In this document: positions 635 to 8,654 of the stretch, one piece after another
Numbering within the stretch: the first letter of the stretch is position 1
How the letters are laid out: each line of letters begins with the position of its first letter
Virus record (IMG/VR): IMGVR_UViG_2563366830_000015
Reading direction: 5' to 3' (one strand)
Length of the DNA: 8,654 nt
Origin: a virus
Lineage: Duplodnaviria > Heunggongvirae > Uroviricota > Caudoviricetes
Translations under genes and position numbers: made by a program
The notes under the pieces: model-generated
What the model saw: only the letters and a program-made list of their open reading frames with translations
Databases searched by the model: none
Told to the model about the DNA's origin: nothing

Positions 635-3600
635 ATGGGAAAAGGTGGCGGTAAGGCACACACGCCTCGTGAGGCGAAGGATAATCTCAAATCCACGCAG
701 ATGATGAGTGTGATTGATGCGATTGGTGAGGGACCGATAGAAGGTCCGGTGAAGGGACTGCAGAGTATTCTGGTGAACAAAACCCCGCTGACGGACACGG
801 ACGGTAATCCCGTGATACACGGTGTGACTGCGGTCTGGCGTGCCGGGGAGCAGGAGCAGACACCACCGGAAGGCTTTGAGTCCTCCGGTGCTGAAACCGG
901 ACTGGGCGTGGAAGTGACGAAGGCAAAACCGGTGACGCGCACCATTACGTCCGCGAACATTGACCGCCTGCGGGTTACCTTCGGAGTGCAGTCACTGGTG
1001 CAGACCACGTCAAAGGGCGACCGTAATCCTTCCTCTGTCCGGATTCTGATTCAGTTACAGCGTAATGGCCGCTGGGTGACGGAAAAGGACGTCACCATTA
1101 ACGGCAAGACCACCTCACAGTTCCTGGCCTCGGTGATTCTGGATAATCTGCCTCCCCGGCCCTTTAACATCCGGATGGTCAGGGAGACGGCGGACAGCAC
1201 CACGGACCAGCTGCAGAATAAGACGCTGTGGTCGTCATACACTGAAATCATCGATGTGAAACAGTGCTACCCGAACACGGCCATTGTGGGGCTGCAGGTG
1301 GATGCGGAGCAGTTCGGCGGCCAGCAGATGACGGTGAACTACCATATCCGCGGTCGCATCATCCAGGTGCCGTCAAACTATGACCCGGTAAAACGCACGT
1401 ACAGTGGTATCTGGGACGGCAGTCTGAAACCGGCATACAGCAACAACCCGGCCTGGTGCCTGTGGGACATGCTGACTCACCCGCGCTACGGCATGGGAAA
1501 ACGTCTGGGGGCGGCGGATGTGGACAAGTGGGCGCTGTATGCCATCGGGCAGTACTGCGACCAGACGGTCCCGGATGGTTTCGGGGGGACCGAGCCGCGG
1601 ATGACCTTTAATGCGTACCTGGCACAACAGCGTAAGGCGTGGGACGTTCTCAGTGATTTCTGCTCTGCGATGCGCTGTATGCCGGTATGGAACGGCCAGA
1701 CGCTGACGTTCGTTCAGGACCGCCCGTCGGATGTGGTGTGGCCGTACACCAACAGCGATGTGGTGGTGGATGATAACGGCGTGGGATTCCGCTACAGCTT
1801 CAGTGCCCTGAAGGACCGGCACACGGCGGTGGAGGTGAATTACACCGACCCGCAGAACGGCTGGCAGACCTCCACGGAACTGGTGGAAGACCCGGAAGCC
1901 ATACTGCGCTACGGACGCAACCTGCTGAAGATGGACGCGTTCGGCTGTACCAGCCGCGGTCAGGCCCACCGTGCCGGACTGTGGGTGATAAAGACCGAAC
2001 TGCTGGAAACGCAGACGGTGGATTTCACGCTCGGGTCTCAGGGGCTGCGGCACACACCCGGTGACATCATTGAAATCTGTGATAACGACTATGCCGGGAC
2101 CCTGACCGGCGGACGTGTCCTGTCCATTGATGCTGCCACCCGCACCCTGACGCTGGACCGTGAAGTGACACTTCCGGAGACCGGTGCCGCCACGGTGAAC
2201 CTGATTAACGGCAGCGGTAAGCCGGTGAGTGTGGACATCACCGCACACCCCGCGCCGGACCGGATACAGGTCAGTACCCTGCCTGATGGTGTGGAGACAT
2301 ACGGGGTGTGGGGACTCTCCCTGCCGTCACTGCGCCGTCGCCTGTTCCGCTGTGTCTCCGTCCGGGAAAACACGGACGGCACCTTTGCCATCACGGCGGT
2401 GCAGCACGTACCGGAAAAAGAAGCCATCGTGGATAACGGTGCCCGCTTTGAGCCGCAGTCAGGTTCCCTGAACAGCGTCATCCCACCGGCAGTGCAGCAC
2501 CTGACGGTGGAGGTGAGCGCAGCTGACGGACAGTATCTGGCGCAGGCGAAATGGGACACGCCGCGGGTGGTGAAGGGTGTGCGCTTCAGTCTGCGCCTGA
2601 CCAGTGGTAAGGGAACGGATGCCAGACTGGTGACCACCGCCATCACCGCAGACACGGAGCACCGTTTCAGCGGCCTGCCGCTCGGGGAATACACCCTGAC
2701 GGTGCGGGCGATAAACAGCTATGGCCAGCAGGGTGAACCTGCCACCACCACATTCCGGATTGCCGCACCGGCAGCACCGTCGCGGATTGAGCTGACGCCG
2801 GGCTATTTTCAGATAACGGCGGTCCCGCGTCTTGCGGTGTATGACCCGACGGTACAGTTTGAGTTCTGGTTCTCGGAAAAGCGGATTGCGGATATCAGGC
2901 AGGTTGAAACCGCAGCCCGCTATCTTGGCTCGGCGCTGTACTGGATAGCTGCCAGTATCAATATCAAACCGGGCCATGATTATTATTTTTACATCCGCAG
3001 TGTGAACACCGTTGGCAAATCGGCATTTGTGGAGGCTGTTGGCCAGCCGAGTGATGATGCATCCGGCTATCTGAATTTTTTCAAAGGAGAGATAGGGAAA
3101 ACCCATCTGGCTCAGGAGTTGTGGACGCAGATTGATAACGGTCAGCTTGCGCCTGACCTGGCTGAAATCAGGACGTCCATTACGGATGTCAGCAATGAAA
3201 TCACGCAGACCGTCAATAAAAAACTGGAAAATCAGAGTGCGGCAATCCAGCAGATACAGAAGGTTCAGGTTGATACAAATAATAATCTGAACAGCATGTG
3301 GGCTGTGAAGCTGCAGCAGATGCAGGACGGACGCCTTTATATTGCGGGTATCGGTGCCGGTATTGAGAATACGCCAGCAGGAATGCAGAGTCAGGTGCTG
3401 CTGGCGGCAGACAGGATTGCGATGATTAATCCTGCGAATGGCAACACAAAGCCGATGTTTGTTGGTCAGGGCGATCAGATATTCATGAACGACGTGTTCC
3501 TGAAACGCCTGACGGCTCCCACCATTACCAGCGGCGGTAATCCTCCGGCATTTTCCCTGACACCGGACGGAAAACTGACCGCTAAAAATGCAGATATCAG

Positions 3601-4108
3601 TGGCAGTGTGAATGCGAACGCCGGGACGCTCAACAATGTCACAATTAATGAGAACTGTCAGATTAAGGGGAAACTGTCAGCCAACCAGATTGAAGGCGAT
3701 ATAGTCAAAACAGTGGGTAAGGCTTTTCCGCGGGACTCCCGGGCACCGGAGCGGTGGCCATCAGGGACCATTACCGTCAGGATTTATGACGATCAGCCTT
3801 TTGACAGGCAAATTGTTATTCCGGCGGTGGCATTCAGCGGCGCTAAACATGAGCGGGAGAATAACGATATTTATTCGTCATGCCGCCTGATAGTACGGAA
3901 AAACGGTGCTGAAATTTATAACCGTACCGCGCTGGATAATACGCTGATTTACAGTGGTGTTATTGATATGCCTGCTGGTCGCGGCCACATGACGCTGGAG
4001 TTTTCTGTATCAGCATGGTGGGTAAATGGCTGGTATCCCACAGCAAGTATCAGCGATTTGCTGGTTGTTGTGATGAAGAAAGCCACTGCAGGCATCACGA
4101 TTAGCTGA
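635..4108 (+). CDS. J: Tail tip / host specificity protein J (lambda gpJ family), 1157 aa
   Basis: Single long ORF with ATG at 635 preceded by GGGGAAGG (624-631) as a ribosome-binding site. An in-frame TGA at 518-520 and no alternative start in between fix the start. The N-terminus ([22 protein letters not shown]...) and long conserved blocks (e.g. [108 protein letters not shown]) match lambda J as recalled. Confidence 0.95.
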
Positions 4109-4127
4109 ATTTTATAACCCCAATACG

Positions 4128-4154
4128 GGCGCCAGAAATGGCGCCTTTTTTATT
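4128..4154 (+). terminator. Intrinsic terminator downstream of J
   Basis: GGCGCC (4128-4133), loop AGAAAT, GGCGCC (4140-4145), followed by TTTTTTATT (4146-4154). Classic GC stem plus T-run, 20 nt after the J stop codon. Confidence 0.7.
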
Positions 4155-4175: not shown

Positions 4176-4775
4176 ATGCGTAAAGTTTGTGCAGCCATTT
4201 TGTCCGCAGCAATCTGTCTGTCTGCCTCCGGTACGCCAGCGTGCGCGGCAGAACATCAGTCCACACTGAGCGCGGGGTATCTTCATGCCCGCACGGATAC
4301 TCCCGGCAGCGATAATCTGAACGGGATTAACGTGAAATACCGTTATGAGTTTACGGACGCGCTGGGGCTGATTACGTCCTTCAGTTATGCCAATGCTGAG
4401 GATGAGCAAAAAACGCACTACAGCGATACCCGCTGGCATGAAGATTCCGTGCGTAACCGCTGGTTCAGCGTGATGGCGGGGCCGTCTGTACGCGTGAATG
4501 AATGGTTCAGCGCGTATGCGATGGTGGGTGTGGCTTACAGCCGTGTGTCGACTTTCTCCGGGGATTATCTCCGCGTAACTGACAACAAGGGGAAAACGCA
4601 CGATGTGCTGACCGGAAGTGATGACGGTCGCCACAGCAACACGTCTCTGGCGTGGGGGGCTGGCGTGCAGTTTAACCCGACCGAATCCGTAACCATTGAC
4701 CTTGCTTATGAAGGTTCCGGTAGTGGCGACTGGCGAACGGATGCATTTATTGTTGGTATCGGATACCGTTTCTGA
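4176..4775 (+). CDS. lom: Lom outer membrane protein (Ail/Lom/PagC family beta-barrel), 199 aa
   Basis: ATG at 4176 is preceded by GAGAGG as a ribosome-binding site. The N-terminus MRKVCAAILSAAICLSASGTPACA looks like a signal peptide. Blocks such as STLSAGYLHA, NLNGINVKYRYEFTD, RWFSVMAGPSVRVNEWFSAYAM, SLAWGAGVQFNPTESV and a terminal aromatic residue (...GYRF) match lambda Lom and Ail-family proteins as recalled. Confidence 0.95.
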   Translation: MRKVCAAILSAAICLSASGTPACAAEHQSTLSAGYLHARTDTPGSDNLNGINVKYRYEFTDALGLITSFSYANAEDEQKTHYSDTRWHEDSVRNRWFSVMAGPSVRVNEWFSAYAMVGVAYSRVSTFSGDYLRVTDNKGKTHDVLTGSDDGRHSNTSLAWGAGVQFNPTESVTIDLAYEGSGSGDWRTDAFIVGIGYRF

Positions 4776-4879
4776 CAACAGACGCCGATTTATCTTCTGT
4801 AAATATTGTTATGATACGCAGGTTCATCCGCCTTATGGGGTGAACTGCGTTTGAGGAAACGTAAAGTTACACTGTCCTG

Positions 4880-4916
4880 AAGCCCGTGGCGTCACTGCTG
4901 CGGGCTTTTTTTATTG
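4880..4916 (+). terminator. Intrinsic terminator-like hairpin 105 bp downstream of lom, immediately upstream of stf
   Basis: AAGCCCG (4880-4886) pairs with CGGGCTT (4901-4907) across a 14-nt loop, followed by a T-run (TTTTTTTATT, to 4916). The stf ribosome-binding site GGTGGA (4916-4921) and ATG 4927 follow. Confidence 0.6.
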
Positions 4917-4926
4917 GTGGAAAAGT

Positions 4927-7900
4927 ATGACAGTAAAAATTTCTGGCGTGCTTAAAGATGGCACAGGAAAACCAGTACAGAACTGCACCATTGTGCTGAA
5001 GGCCAGACGAACCAGCAGCACGGTGGTGGTGAACACGGTGGCCTCTGAAAATCCGGATGAAGCCGGACGTTACAGCATGGATGTTGAGCATGGCCAGTAC
5101 AGCGTCACCCTGCTGGTTGAAGGTTTTCCGCCTTCACATGCCGGGACCATTACCGTCTATGAAGGTTCCAGACCAGGTACGCTGAATGATTTTCTCGGTG
5201 CCATGACGGAGGATGATGTCCGACCGGAGGCACTGCGCCGCTTTGAGCAGATGGTGGAAGAGGTGTCACGTAACGCCTCCGCGGTTGCACAGAATACGGC
5301 AGCCGCGAAAAAATCAGCCAGCGATGCCAGTGCATCAGCCAGCGAGGCGGCAACTCATGCAACCGATGCTGCAGCCTCAGCACGTGCCGCCAGCACGTCA
5401 GCCGGACAGGCCGCGTCGTCGGCTCAGTCAGCGTCTTCCAGCGCAGGAACGGCATCGACAAAGGCCCGTGAAGCAGCAAAAAGTGCTGCTGCTGCAGAGT
5501 CATCAAAAAGCGCGGCAGCTACCAGCGCCAGTGCCGCGAAAACGTCAGAAACGAATGCCGCAGCATCACAAAAATCGGCAGCCACTTCTGCATCCACAGC
5601 GACCACGAAGGCGTCAGAAGCTGCCACCTCGGCACGGGGTGCGGCGGCCTCAAAAGAGGCAGCGAAATCTTCAGAAACGAATGCATCATCAAGTGCCAGT
5701 AGTGCAGCTTCCTCGGCAACGGCGGCAGGAAATTCCGCGAAGGCGGCAAAAACGTCCGAGACGAACGCTAAGTCTTCTGAAACAGCAGCGGGACAGAGCG
5801 CCTCAGCTGCGGCAGGTTCAAAAACAGCGGCTGCATTATCTGCCAGTGCCGCGTCAACAAGTGCCGGGCAGGCCTCAGCCAGTGCCACCGCCGCCGGAAA
5901 ATCGGCAGAAAGCGCCGCATCATCCGCTTCAACAGCCACAACGAAGGCTGGCAAAGCCACTGAGCAAGCCACTGCAGCAGCGAGGTCTGCTTCTGCAGCA
6001 AAAACCTCTGAAACAAATGCAAAGACTTCAGCAGACAATGCTGCTTCCTCTAAGGCGGCAGCCGCATCGTCAGCCAGTTCAGCGGCGTCATCGGCATCAT
6101 CTGCGTCTGCTTCAAAGGATGAGGCGACCAGACAAGCGTCAGCAGCGAAAGGTAGTGCCACGACAGCAACAACGAAAGCATCAGAGGCGGCAGGCAGTGC
6201 GACGGCTGCATCTCAGAGCAAAGTTGCTGCTGAATCCGCGGCAACGCGCGCCGAGACAGCAGCAAAACGGGCAGAGGATATTGCATCCGCCGTGGCGCTG
6301 GAGGATGCGAGCACGACGAAAAAGGGGATAGTACAGCTCAGCAGTGCAACAAACAGCACCAGTGAAAAGCTGGCGGCAACGCCAAAGGCAGTTAAAACTG
6401 TTAAAGATAGTTCAGTTCAAAAAACTGGCGACACAATGGGAGGGCAGTTAAAAATCAGCACGATAAATGCTCTTCGAATATTCAACCAAGCCTTTGGCCT
6501 TATTTTTAGGCGTTCCGAAGATCATCTTCATCTTATTCCGACTAATGAAGGGGAGGGGGAAAATGGAGACATCGGTTCATTAAGACCATTCTCTATAAAC
6601 TTAAGATCAGGGTTGGTGTCCATCGGTAATGGACTAAAAGTTGGTGGTAGTGTTACTGGTAATTTGACCGGAAACGCAGATACTGCGACCAAGATCAAGA
6701 CAGCACGTAAGATTGGGGGCGTGGCATTTGATGGATCGGCAGATATCAACTTGCCTGGAGTCAACGCTACCGGTAATCAAAACACTACAGGTAATGCTGC
6801 GACCGCCACGAAACTTCAGGCAGCCAGAACGATTAACGGTGTGTCATTTGATGGTAGTGCAAATATCACATTGACCCCTTCAAATATTGGGGCATTGGCA
6901 TTAACTGGAGGGACTCTTTCAGGTGGTTTAACTGCTGCTGGTGAGGTTATTTCAAGGTCAGCAAATGGTCTGCGTATTGCCTATGGCAACTATGGATTCT
7001 TTATCCGAAATGATGGATCAAACACATATTTTATGTTGACAGATTCGGGTAACAGTCTTGGTACGCACAATAGCTTAAGGCCGTTTATAATTAGTAACCA
7101 TACTGGCAATGTTACAATTGCAACTAAATTAAACGCGAGTGGTGGTATCACTGGATCTTTATCGGGTAATGCAAGCACAGCAACCAAATTGCAAACTGCA
7201 AGGACAATTAACGGCGTAAAATTTGACGGCTCGGCAAATATTGAAGCGTTTCCGCCAGGTGTTCCGCTGCCGTGGCCATCAGATACACCACCTGCAGGTT
7301 ATGCGATCATGCAGGGGCAGACGTTTGATAAGGCAGCATATCCGAAACTGGCTATTGCCTATCCTTCAGGTGTTATTCCAGATATGCGCGGCTGGACAAT
7401 CAAGGGCAAACCCGCCAGTGGCCGGGCCGTATTGTCTCAGGAACAGGACGGCATAAAATCGCACACCCACAGCGCCAGCGCATCCAGTACGGATTTGGGG
7501 ACGAAAACCACATCGTCGTTTGATTACGGCACTAAATCCACGAATAACACCGGGGCGCATACGCACAGTCTGAGTGGCTCTACGGGGTCTGCCGGTGTTC
7601 ATACTCATGGTAATGGTATTCGTTGGCCAGGAGGCGGCGGTTCTGCGTTAGCATTTTATGATGGCGGTGGGTTCACTTATGTCCAGAATTCACAGTATCA
7701 AGTAAGCCCGGAGACTTCTTCCTATAGATCGTATTATCAACGTATTCAGACACAGTCAGCAGGTGCTCATACCCACTCGCTGTCTGGTACTGCAGCAAGT
7801 TCTGGCGCACATGCACATACTGTAGGTATTGGTGCGCATACGCACTCCGTTGCGATTGGTTCACATGGACACACCATCACCGTTAACGCTGCGGGTAACG

Positions 7901-7953
7901 CGGAAAACACCGTCAAAAACATCGCATTTAACTATATTGTGAGGCTTGCATAA
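4927..7953 (+). CDS. stf: Side tail fibre protein Stf (lambda Stf / orf-401 family), 1008 aa, with expanded Ala/Ser/Thr-rich repeat region and fibre-repeat modules
   Basis: The N-terminus ([22 protein letters not shown]...[14 protein letters not shown]...[13 protein letters not shown]) and C-terminus (...[50 protein letters not shown]...[31 protein letters not shown]) match lambda Stf as recalled. The stop TAA 7951-7953 overlaps the ATG of tfa (TAATG). Confidence 0.9.
5270..6295 (+). repeat. Coding low-complexity region of imperfect tandem repeats (Ala/Ser/Thr-rich, recurring AAKTSETNA-like units) within stf
   Basis: Recurrent nucleotide units (e.g. aaaacgtcagaaacgaatgc, aaatcttcagaaacgaatgc, aaaacgtccgagacgaacgc, aaaacctctgaaacaaatgc) encode K(T/S)SETNA repeatedly. 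Both alternate-frame ORFs across this segment are long and low-complexity, as expected for repetitive GC-rich coding DNA. Confidence 0.7.
6670..7245 (+). repeat. Three copies of a ~23-aa phage tail-fibre repeat (TATK[LI]xxAR[TK]I[NG]GVxFDGSA[ND]I) within stf
   Basis: The copies are [23 protein letters not shown] (~6678-6746), [23 protein letters not shown] (~6797-6868) and [23 protein letters not shown] (~7173-7241). The motif resembles the short phage tail-fibre repeat family known from fibre proteins (family name from memory). Confidence 0.6.
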
Positions 7954-8030
7954 TGGCATTCAGAATGAGTGAACAAGCACGGACCATAAAAATTTATAAT
8001 CTGCTGGCCGGAACTAATGAATTTATGTAA
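7953..8030 (+). pseudogene. tfa: Tail fibre assembly protein Tfa, truncated after 25 codons by the IS66-family insertion
   Basis: ATG 7953-7955 overlaps the stf stop. The translation [24 protein letters not shown] matches the N-terminus of lambda Tfa as recalled, then reads M-stop (ATG TAA, 8025-8030) where the sequence runs into the IS terminal repeat GTAAGCG. Confidence 0.8.
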
Positions 8031-8111
8031 GCGTAAACTGACCGCCGTATGTAGCCATCAGACGAGAATTGGTAACTTAGACGCCCATCTGATATAGACG
8101 GACATCTAAGT

Positions 8112-8537
8112 ATGGAATTACAGGACTGGCGAAAAGAACCTCGTAAAAACTATTCGAATGAATTCAAACTTCGTATGGTGGAACTGGCATCACAACCTGG
8201 AGCTTGTGTTGCACAGATTGCACGTGAAAATGGCGTCAATGATAATGTTATTTTCAAATGGCTCAGGCTCTGGCAGAACGAAGGGCGTGTTTCGCGGCGT
8301 CTTCCGGTAACGACCTCTTCTGACACTGGCGTTGAATTATTACCTGTAGAAATAACGCCGGATGAGCAGAAAGAACCTGTGGTGGCCATTGCGCCGTCTT
8401 TATCCACTTCCACTCAGACCAGAGTCAGTGCCAGTTCCTGCAAGGTGGAATTCCATCACGGTAACATGACGCTGGAAAATCCATCGCCAGAGCTGCTCAC
8501 AGTGTTGATCCGTGAACTGACCGGGAGGGGAAGATGA
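8112..8537 (+). CDS. tnpA: IS66-family accessory protein TnpA (orf1, helix-turn-helix), 141 aa
   Basis: The ORF sits directly inside the IS left end. The translation (MELQDWRKEPRKNYSNEFKLRMVELASQPGACVAQIARENGVNDNVIFKWLRLWQNEGR...) has the helix-turn-helix-like N-terminus typical of IS66 orf1 proteins. Its stop overlaps the tnpB start. Confidence 0.8.
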   Translation: MELQDWRKEPRKNYSNEFKLRMVELASQPGACVAQIARENGVNDNVIFKWLRLWQNEGRVSRRLPVTTSSDTGVELLPVEITPDEQKEPVVAIAPSLSTSTQTRVSASSCKVEFHHGNMTLENPSPELLTVLIRELTGRGR

Positions 8538-8654
8538 TCTCACTCCCATCAGGTACCCATATCTGGCTCGTTGCCGGCGTTACCGATATGCGTAAATCCT
8601 TCAACGGACTGGGAGAACAGGTACAACATGTGCTGAATGATAATCCCTTCTCCG
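8534..8654 (+). CDS. tnpB: IS66-family TnpB (orf2), N-terminal 40 codons; 3' end beyond the window
   Basis: ATG at 8534 overlaps the tnpA TGA (ATGA). The translation MISLPSGTHIWLVAGVTDMRKSFNGLGEQVQHVLNDNPFS closely matches the conserved N-terminus of IS66-family TnpB proteins as recalled. It is open to the window end and is not in the supplied ORF track because it has no stop. Confidence 0.85.
   Translation, partial: MISLPSGTHIWLVAGVTDMRKSFNGLGEQVQHVLNDNPFS

Follow-up and report, generated by a model that had tools for sequence, protein, structure and literature searches.

A close relative of the gene studied here encodes the side tail fibre protein (Stf) of Ur-lambda (UniProt P03764; orf-401 and orf-314 in lambda PaPa), which is made up of a collar domain, a linker, a proximal coiled coil and a hinge, followed by a distal part that resembles gp37 and binds OmpC (PMC12617516). 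The N-terminal domain of this protein builds a 12-copy collar on gpV/gpM, and its proximal coiled coil is placed at residues 102–393 and reported as a trimeric rod consistent with the cryo-EM/ET density (PMC12617516). Residues R393 and S528 of lambda Stf are the fusion positions of engineered chimeras (PMC11338833). Tips of the T4 gp37 type have a layout in which conserved flanks surround a variable insert (PMC9659904), and the region of T4 gp34 around residues ~1040–1115 comprises a triple beta-helix and the P4 beta-prism (Granell et al., 2017).

The window, by which we mean the whole stretch of 8654 nucleotides that was analysed, is identical to sequence of Escherichia coli strain MS 196-1, and it matches annotated prophage genes at 100%, in the order I, J (635–4108), lom (4176–4775), stf (4927–7953) and tfa from 7953 (the parts described from 4879 onwards lie on the + strand unless stated otherwise). 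The ORF at 4927–7953, downstream of J and lom and with the start of tfa immediately after it, encodes 1008 aa that are 100% identical to RefSeq WP_000216487.1, annotated as ‘prophage tail fiber N-terminal domain-containing protein’, and has Pfam matches to PF08400, PF21446, PF07484 and PF03335 as well as to PF03406 at a junction discussed below. As the preliminary description of this DNA had stated, the protein is longer than lambda Stf (774 aa in the reconstructed Ur-lambda protein). We regard it as very probable that the ORF is the Stf of a lambda-like E. coli prophage at ompW (‘PPompW’ type) and that, as a mosaic of exchangeable modules, it is explained as a whole. This is an ordinary, previously catalogued Stf showing textbook tail-fibre mosaicism that is already known; it has little significance beyond annotation, although it neatly illustrates how modular tail fibres are. 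Just upstream of stf, after lom, lies a terminator-like hairpin with a T-run (4879–4908; a 13-bp stem with seven GC pairs, then TTTTTATT), and this hairpin and a second one at 4127–4146 flank lom on both sides in a moron-like layout. Rfam gave no matches across the window.

The N-terminal tail-attachment domain (aa 1–94, 4927–5208) matches PF08400 with an E-value of 5.6e-70 and the whole profile covered (positions 1–134 of 134), which places the protein among the lambda Stf-type fibres. The N-terminus also aligns with residues 1–94 of PDB 9e7m, ‘Tail fiber protein’ (E 3.6e-47), which we take to be lambda gpStfN, the tie between the structure and the published work being our assumption. By homology, three chains of this domain would be docked at the junction of tail tube and tip.

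Between aa 100 and 456 (5224–6294) the protein consists of 51 uninterrupted heptads of the form xxSAxxA, which share one phase without a break. Amino-acid autocorrelation at lag 7 is 0.43 vs 0.23 in shuffles (z ~9), and there is signal at every multiple of seven. Two long ORFs in other frames within the tract (5213–6331 on the + strand and 5424–6161 on the − strand) were discounted, since the run of GCN/TCN/ACN codons produces such frames through its composition alone. The preliminary description had placed about 1 kb of imperfect tandem repeats at 5270–6295; the periodic tract is real, with the limits given above, but at the DNA level its repetition is weak. Tandem Repeats Finder (TRF) run on stf returned no array for the tract and only two tiny, trivial ones, for which reason the reading as a DNA tandem array was dropped, the sole direct-repeat family in stf with more than two copies has six 33-nt copies at 64–82% identity, and DNA autocorrelation at 21 nt is 0.45 vs ~0.36 at other in-frame lags. 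Because of these results the tract is a protein heptad repeat with weak DNA repetition rather than a classical DNA tandem repeat. An extreme composition (39% Ala, 24% Ser and 11% Thr, 74% for the three together) and the occurrence of near-identical alleles that vary in length, some outside the heptad register, could be taken to mean that the tract, instead of forming a structured coiled coil, is a low-complexity spacer without order, or else a contingency locus based on a hypermutable DNA tandem repeat. This we consider very improbable, since the 7-residue periodicity is strict and in one phase over all 51 heptads, the heptads are only ~43% identical in nucleotides and make no TRF array, and the homologous lambda segment (residues 102–393) is the one reported as a trimeric coiled-coil rod. 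Moreover, 94 of the 120 relatives listed, mostly at least 95% identical, have exactly the same length, so the tract is not hypervariable. The signature of a coiled-coil rod is here read at the level of sequence, as one-phase heptads homologous to the lambda coiled coil, a monomer model being unsuited to trimeric helices. A core of Ala and Ser is atypical for a canonical coiled coil. By homology the proximal rod would have 51 heptads with such a small-residue core and, at ~0.15 nm per residue, a predicted length of ~53 nm, ~16 nm longer than that of lambda.

The difference from lambda Stf is 15 heptads (105 aa, 15 × 7): in an ungapped register comparison lambda aa 310 onwards corresponds to aa 415 onwards here, an offset of 105 aa, leaving aa 310–414 (5854–6168) without a lambda counterpart. 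The tract had been called expanded, which holds in comparison with lambda (51 vs 36 heptads) but not with K-12 StfR and several phages, which also have 51, and because of these lambda Stf may equally be the shortened form. In a search for higher-order repeats, all heptad offsets within the tract gave ~40% amino-acid and ~43% nucleotide identity. Internal block duplication was considered as the source of the extra 15 heptads and rejected as too weak, the 16-heptad offset (aa 198 to 310) scoring no higher than roughly the 95th percentile when heptads were shuffled. Variation in tract length across related prophages, which the preliminary description had proposed to examine, was found: near-identical alleles carry clean deletions of 1–112 aa, which are single and in register in six of 10 alleles (7, 28, 42, 49, 105 and 112 aa, i.e. 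1, 4, 6, 7, 15 and 16 heptads; P ~1e-3) and out of register in the other four (1, 22, 34 and 43 aa). The latter may mean that register is not strictly kept, or that some of these sequences are defective or erroneous. Among relatives with PF08400 the KKGIVQL junction lies at 241, 248, 262, 353, 360 or 465, and in one at 257; distances from 465 are multiples of seven (105, 112, 203, 217 and 224 aa) except for the anchor at 257. Rod length would change by deletion or insertion of heptads in register, between short repeated codon strings. It is a rather unlikely but conceivable extension that the Ala/Ser heptad rod is an evolvable length ruler, its steps of ~1 nm per heptad tuned to the thickness of host O-antigen or capsule separately from receptor specificity. 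In its support are the heptad-quantised position of the junction across relatives and the alleles that lie 1, 4, 6, 7, 15 or 16 heptads apart, and repeated codon strings (e.g. AAKTSETNA, at least four copies) would favour gain or loss of whole heptads in register. That rod length is quantised in heptads is a minor finding, open to testing in a study of fibre lengths.

The rod ends in a junction repeat (aa 457–500, 6295–6426) that matches PF03406, Phage_fiber_2 (E 9.7e-18), is also present in Mu S (5yvq residues 83–150) and is the final segment that this Stf shares with those of lambda, K-12 (StfR) and further phages or prophages ahead of the breakpoint. The central block that follows had been described as AT-richer at ~6330–7250, and GC is indeed 0.41–0.47 across ~6300–7200 vs 0.55–0.61 on the flanks, with third-position GC (GC3) falling as well, to 0.39, 0.38 and 0.30. 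Since second-position GC (GC2) of the tract is 0.78, the contrast is partly an effect of amino-acid composition. Two paralogous modules of ~95 aa with an extra short repeat between them had also been recognized from the sequence, and this arrangement was borne out. Module 1 (aa 501–612, 6427–6762) is probably a divergent gp34-type shaft domain, given its homology to module 2, and is followed by a repeat of the form GNAxTATKxxTARxIxGVxFDGSxxI; the extra short fibre repeat (aa 613–649, 6763–6873) is, over aa 619–649, 68% identical to aa 579–609 and 71% to aa 746–779; and module 2 (aa 650–772, 6874–7242; GC3 0.30) is a domain of the gp34 P4/Mu S type, again followed by the repeat. A profile search of the central block against fibre families, as had been suggested, placed PF03406 at the junction and PF21446 (Gp34_trimer) in module 2 (93.7 bits vs a cut-off of 27, E 1.4e-26), which assigns module 2 to that family; the match of module 1 to PF21446 (18.8 bits, E 0.0024) is below the 27-bit cut-off, and both modules match identical PHROG profile positions. 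Module 2 also matches Mu S (5yvq residues 268–349, E 1.9e-25) and T4 gp34 residues 997–1121 (9x3r, 4uxe and 5nxf, E ~1e-17). AlphaFold2 run as a monomer on aa 457–800 with a 14-row alignment gave a mean pLDDT of 46 and a pTM of 0.24, a model of too low quality to confirm the folds or to serve in a fold search, although its beta-strand patterns are similar in both modules. By homology the distal shaft would combine two beta-prism-type domains, like those of T4 gp34 and Mu S, with short fibre repeats.

When aligned (aa 501–612 vs 667–779) the two modules are 42% identical by BLASTP (E 9.5e-22). This homology, together with their spacing of only ~55 aa and the repeat of the same family between them, is what a recent tandem duplication of ~110 aa inside stf would leave, and the preliminary description had spoken of an internal duplication. 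The modules are homologous, but their global identity is 43% in amino acids and 49.5% in nucleotides, identity at third codon positions of conserved residues is 27%, i.e. saturated, and no direct DNA repeat links the two in stf. In addition, by HMMER score module 2 strongly matches Mu S and T4 gp34, compared with its mere 42% identity to module 1, and in P0108 and P0112 module 2 alone is swapped (69–72% identity vs 91–96% in the flanks). A recent duplication is therefore very improbable and, because synonymous sites between them are saturated, the modules are taken to be ancient paralogues, both belonging to a fibre domain that occurs widely.

Fibre genes of other phages and prophages run collinear with stf as far as gene nt 1470 and resume at nt 2344, with a different centre, which gives DNA breakpoints near 6396 and 7270 and a cassette of gene nt 1471–2343 (6397–7269). 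At the protein level breakpoints lie at aa ~207, ~495–500, 649/650 and 772/773 and include fibres with a different N-terminal anchor. Collinear flanks around a different centre, discrete breakpoints and natural variation in tract length support the domain shuffling proposed earlier, and the three structural claims of the preliminary description all hold. We suggest that anchor plus rod, central cassette and tip would each pass between phages on their own, through recombination at junctions that are conserved. Among 50,697 phage records none matched at least 80% of the central cassette, so no donor can be named; partial DNA matches of 70–75% were to fibres of P1-like phages, Mu, P2 and D6. The breakpoint at aa ~498 corresponds to lambda R393 from the +105-aa offset, and that at aa ~772 approximately to S528 (the alignment puts aa 764 at lambda 519). 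As these two positions match those used for lambda chimeras, the junction map (aa ~207, ~498, 649/650 and 772/773) may aid the choice of fusion points and donor tips in host-range engineering.

Beyond the last of these breakpoints the tip (aa 773–1008, 7243–7950) has the layout of T4 gp37: a collar (PF07484, aa 778–825), a needle with seven HxH motifs (aa 846–982), recognized from sequence and putatively coordinating metal (Fe), a variable head insert (aa ~897–943, 7615–7755) and a conserved C-terminal strand, with a further match to PF03335 and a match of PDB 2xgf, the T4 gp37 tip, to aa 743–1008 (E 1.2e-79). GC returns to 0.55 at 7243–7614 and is 0.47–0.51 thereafter, and with 65% identity to lambda Stf this end of the protein is, as had been claimed, GC-rich and lambda-like. 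By homology the tip would be of gp37 type, its needle bearing the seven HxH motifs and its head the variable insert. The protein is expected to trimerize, four fibres projecting from the tail, and by analogy with Ur-lambda Stf and OmpC the fibres would bind an outer-membrane receptor, either a porin or LPS, in an initial and reversible step, and so speed adsorption. Receptor, trimeric state and rod length are predicted ones for this Stf.

Folding of Stf would require the chaperone Tfa, encoded downstream, and in this strain tfa (tail fibre assembly) is truncated: the 25 codons at 7953–8030, annotated in RefSeq as a partial pseudogene, follow intact tfa (WP_000885577.1) collinearly over 74 nt, to 8026, and stop inside the left end of an insertion sequence. 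This element, annotated as ISEc23 (IS66 family), starts GTAAGCG, occupies 8027–8654 with tnpA at 8112–8537, and in the source genome is 2532 bp long with an 8-bp target duplication, GAATTTAT. The interruption of tfa had been missed in the preliminary description. Because of it this strain probably produces the fibre without assembling it, and as a practical warning an intact stf ORF here does not imply a working fibre. Loss of tfa, the downstream remnants of another tfa and a DUF4376 gene, and the fact that the related K-12 StfR belongs to the cryptic prophage Rac might all suggest that stf has no function and is decaying within a cryptic prophage, its mosaic features being historical debris. 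We consider this improbable because the 3-kb ORF is intact and conserved at 99% identity or more in 419 complete E. coli records, the ISEc23-tfa junction is present in only one of 5,426 genomes, and tfa is intact in all other genomes examined, the intact allele being 94% identical to lambda Tfa. Strains ATCC 25922 and FDAARGOS_1249 are examples with an intact tfa. A unique junction and a target duplication that is still present indicate that the insertion is recent, and we keep to the reading of stf as an exchangeable-module Stf.

Ur-lambda Stf occupies the same site, after J and lom and before tfa. It is 77% identical without gaps over the N-terminal domain and first 352 aa, is in the same heptad register and shares the PF03406 junction motif, the gp37-type HxH tip and the same C-terminal end. 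It differs in its 36 heptads, in a central part (aa ~395–518, PLDSPALTG...DALNTLNELAAALG) without counterpart here, where a 264-aa cassette with the two homologous modules is found instead, and in the tip, which is only 65% identical and has another head insert and eight HxH motifs rather than seven. K-12 Rac prophage StfR (b1372, 1120 aa) is 90% identical without gaps over aa 1–499, with the same 51-heptad rod and junction, and TfaR shares 96% identity with the intact tfa allele. Past the junction StfR has a different segment of ~200 aa and a single gp34-type module, 50% identical to module 2, whereas two modules are present here; in the gp37-type tip identity is 75%, and the head insert is another one.

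In T4 the domains of gp34 (residues ~1040–1115, 4uxe/5nxf/9x3r, matching module 2) and of gp37 (2xgf, matched by aa 743–1008 with their collar, seven HxH motifs and C-terminal strand) belong to different proteins, in the fibre of a contractile tail and with gp38 and gp57A as chaperones, whereas in this Stf one chain carries both, preceded by a lambda-type anchor and coiled coil; the head insert of gp37 also differs. Mu S (5yvq) has the module 2 likeness and the junction motif in common with this Stf, and module 2 DNA is ~75% identical in the fibres of Mu, P1, D6 and P2, but the N-terminal anchors and tips of Mu S and the P1, P2 and D6 fibres are different. The variable part of the Mu and P1 fibres is carried on an invertible segment, whereas a search of 4927–7953 for gix/cix-type crossover sites (AAACCNNGGTTT-type) found none, and no invertase, such as would adjoin a Mu G, P1 C or e14 P switch, is annotated downstream in the source genomes. 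Close in the flanks are Escherichia phages 204576 and PhiR30_1 (also mEp332, ev099 and Turner), whose stf is 89% identical without gaps over gene nt 1–1470 and in which the central cassette (nt 1471–2343) is different; nt 2344–3027 are 94.6% identical in phage 204576, whose gene is longer (~1138 aa), and are matched in parts only, at 87–89%, in PhiR30_1.

The window is identical to part of the chromosome of Escherichia coli MS 196-1 (NZ_CP146681.1) and holds the distal tail genes from a lambda-like prophage that adjoins ompW, yciE and trp. In a phage collection, related elements bear the label 'PPompW', a name used for prophages at ompW (Nakamura et al.). The genes lie in the order I (end part, 25–291), J (635–4108), lom (4176–4775), stf (4927–7953, plus strand, 1008 aa), a truncated tfa (the tail fibre assembly chaperone gene, directly after stf, start 7953) and, from 8027, an IS66-family element (ISEc23). 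At least 80% of the stf gene is carried by 423 of 5,426 complete E. coli genomes, with at least 99% identity in 419 records from such genomes, and the product is already in public annotation under a correct name (WP_000216487.1, 'prophage tail fiber N-terminal domain-containing protein' at NCBI). J encodes 1157 aa as against 1132 aa in lambda (computed from the lambda J coordinates), and its GC content, about 0.63 up to position ~2850, is about 0.47 thereafter, which suggests that the receptor-binding C-terminal part of J is another separately acquired module. The I–J gap (292–634) is unannotated, AT-rich (GC ~0.42) and 343 bp long compared with ~60 bp in lambda; PPompW-type prophages and Stx phages conserve its sequence at 91%, and it contains a hairpin at 500–531 (14-bp stem, zero mismatches) and, on the minus strand, a promoter-like site from 429 to 402 (11 of 12 matches) and then, at 323–307, a terminator-like site. 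The gap gave no Rfam match and could be a small moron or sRNA. On both sides of lom there are strong terminator-like hairpins with T-runs (4127–4146 and 4879–4908), a classic moron layout; the second of these has to be read through for stf to be transcribed.

The preliminary description had proposed an Ala/Ser/Thr tract of imperfect tandem repeats in stf. Periodicity is strict in the protein: residues 100 to 456 (Ala 39%, Ser 24%, Thr 11%), laid out seven per row, keep one register through 51 heptads, in which the third position is nearly always Ser and the seventh Ala, and amino acid identity is ~0.43 at lag 7 and every multiple of it (0.23 in shuffles, z about 9) but no higher than expected at other lags. 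At the DNA level the term 'tandem repeat' does not hold. Tandem Repeats Finder (TRF) reported only two tiny arrays in the gene, just one direct-repeat family exceeded two copies (six of 33 nt, at 64–82% identity), nucleotide identity between heptads was ~43% whatever the offset, and the 21-nt autocorrelation was 0.45 against ~0.36 at other in-frame lags. The tract is therefore a heptad repeat of the protein and not a DNA tandem array. Its homologue is residues 102–393 of Ur-lambda Stf, a trimeric fibre in which this segment is described as the proximal coiled coil, after a collar domain (1–91) and a linker (PMC12617516). An alternative-frame ORF (5213–6331, plus strand, 372 aa) and an antisense ORF (5424–6161, minus strand, 245 aa) within the tract are most probably artefacts of a GCN/TCN/ACN codon run free of stops; the annotated lambda 'orf206b', which lies on the minus strand of orf-401, is another case of this.

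Whether this rod is 'expanded' depends on the relative chosen. Against Ur-lambda Stf (774 aa, rebuilt by joining the two lambda PaPa reading frames), which has 36 heptads, the alignment is gap-free to residue ~309 and then offset by exactly 105 aa, or 15 heptads. K-12 StfR and phages 204576 and PhiR30_1 are gap-free over the first ~490–499 aa and so also have 51 heptads; expansion thus holds only by comparison with lambda. Across 150 PF08400 family representatives the tract varies from absent to as long as it is here, and the conserved KKGIVQL junction lies at position 241, 248, 262, 353, 360 or 465, the distances from 465 (224, 217, 203, 112 and 105 aa) all being multiples of seven; an additional anchor at 257 is at a distance that is not. 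Natural alleles in close relatives (95–100% identical elsewhere) carry clean single deletions within the tract, six of ten being in register (7, 28, 42, 49, 105 and 112 aa, with a 3–6 aa junction repeat) and four out of register (1, 22, 34 and 43 aa), a proportion with a chance probability of about 1e-3. The earlier suggestion of a tract whose length changes through recombination or slippage is supported.

Beyond the rod, a PF03406 fibre repeat (aa 462–498) immediately precedes the first of two modules (aa 501–612 and 667–779), which are 42% identical (E 9.5e-22) and separated by a 31-aa repeat (aa 619–649) matching the repeats that end each module at 68–71%, so that the paralogy and extra repeat described previously are both present. 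Module 2 belongs to PF21446 (93.7 bits) and matches Mu S (5yvq, residues 268–349) and T4 gp34 residues ~1000–1121, a triple beta-helix plus P4 beta-prism domain (Granell et al.). Module 1, a divergent copy, scores 18.8 bits against PF21446, under the cut-off, but the PHROG profile positions that it hits are those hit by module 2. The two share 49.5% of their nucleotides and, at conserved residues, 27% of third positions; a recent duplication within stf is therefore contradicted, and the modules represent either an ancient duplication or separate acquisitions. The centre is AT-richer, as had been noted (GC 0.41–0.47 over ~6300–7200, 0.55–0.61 in the tract), with GC3 values of 0.39 in module 1, 0.38 in the short repeat and 0.30 in module 2 (J, for comparison, 0.665). 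The contrast with the tract is partly one of amino acid composition: the tract has a GC2 of 0.78, because of its Ala, Ser and Thr codons, and a GC3 of just 0.45.

Domain shuffling can be mapped at both DNA and protein level. Phage 204576 matches gene nt 1–1470 at 89% and nt 2344–3027 at 94.6% with a different centre, and PhiR30_1 matches nt 1–1470 at 89% and the 3' region in parts (87–89%), a pattern in which recombination is directly visible and which puts the breakpoints near window positions ~6396 and ~7270. Further junctions, at aa 649/650, 772/773 and ~207, come from protein comparisons. At the last of these, the fibres P0108 (1272 aa) and P0115 (1254 aa, plasmid-borne according to its source label) have a different N-terminus (MWYREGTI...), lacking PF08400, joined to the rod and the beginning of the centre at 92–96% identity. 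The shared stretch runs through both modules to aa 779 in P0115, which has a different C-terminus, and ends at aa 649 in P0108, whose module 2 is only 72% identical and whose tip is common at 94%. The coiled coil itself is thus a junction at which different tail types recombine. Lambda Stf R393 and S528, which are fusion points of functional engineered chimeras (PMC11338833), are the counterparts of the junctions at aa ~498 and, approximately, ~772.

The C-terminus is lambda-like, as proposed, with 65% identity to lambda Stf (75% to StfR) and GC3 rising again to 0.52 in the collar. Residues 743–1008 match the T4 gp37 receptor-binding tip (2xgf, E 1.2e-79), including the collar domain PF07484 and seven HxH motifs, with a divergent insert (aa ~897–943) at the place of the receptor-specific segment in the gp37/Stf family. 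Through such motifs the gp37 needle reportedly coordinates seven iron ions (work of Bartual et al. in 2010). Over 74 nt the tfa gene is collinear with its intact allele, whose identity to lambda Tfa is 94%; ISEc23 then begins (GTAAGCG at 8027), leaving a 25-aa product. This element measures 2532 bp in the source genome and is flanked by an 8-bp target duplication, GAATTTAT, and the junction occurs in one of 5,426 complete E. coli genomes, MS 196-1. Fibres of this family need that chaperone, a dependence established with lambda Tfa and with T4 gp38 (see PMC9659904), and the fibre is therefore probably not assembled in MS 196-1. Downstream of tfa in source genomes (L001, 9584–11374; L002, 12151–13940) lie a small hypothetical ORF, an opposite-strand SAM-dependent methyltransferase, fragments of a second tfa and of a DUF4376 gene, and a truncated ompW; these genes at the prophage end look like leftovers of an alternative fibre-tip and chaperone cassette.

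The preliminary observation and interpretation were thus correct, with refinements, the sole mildly new point being that rod length varies in heptad-quantised steps. The stf product is a standard mosaic side tail fibre of the Stf type built from known domains, and modular exchange among the fibres of lambda, T4, Mu, P1 and P2 has been known for long.
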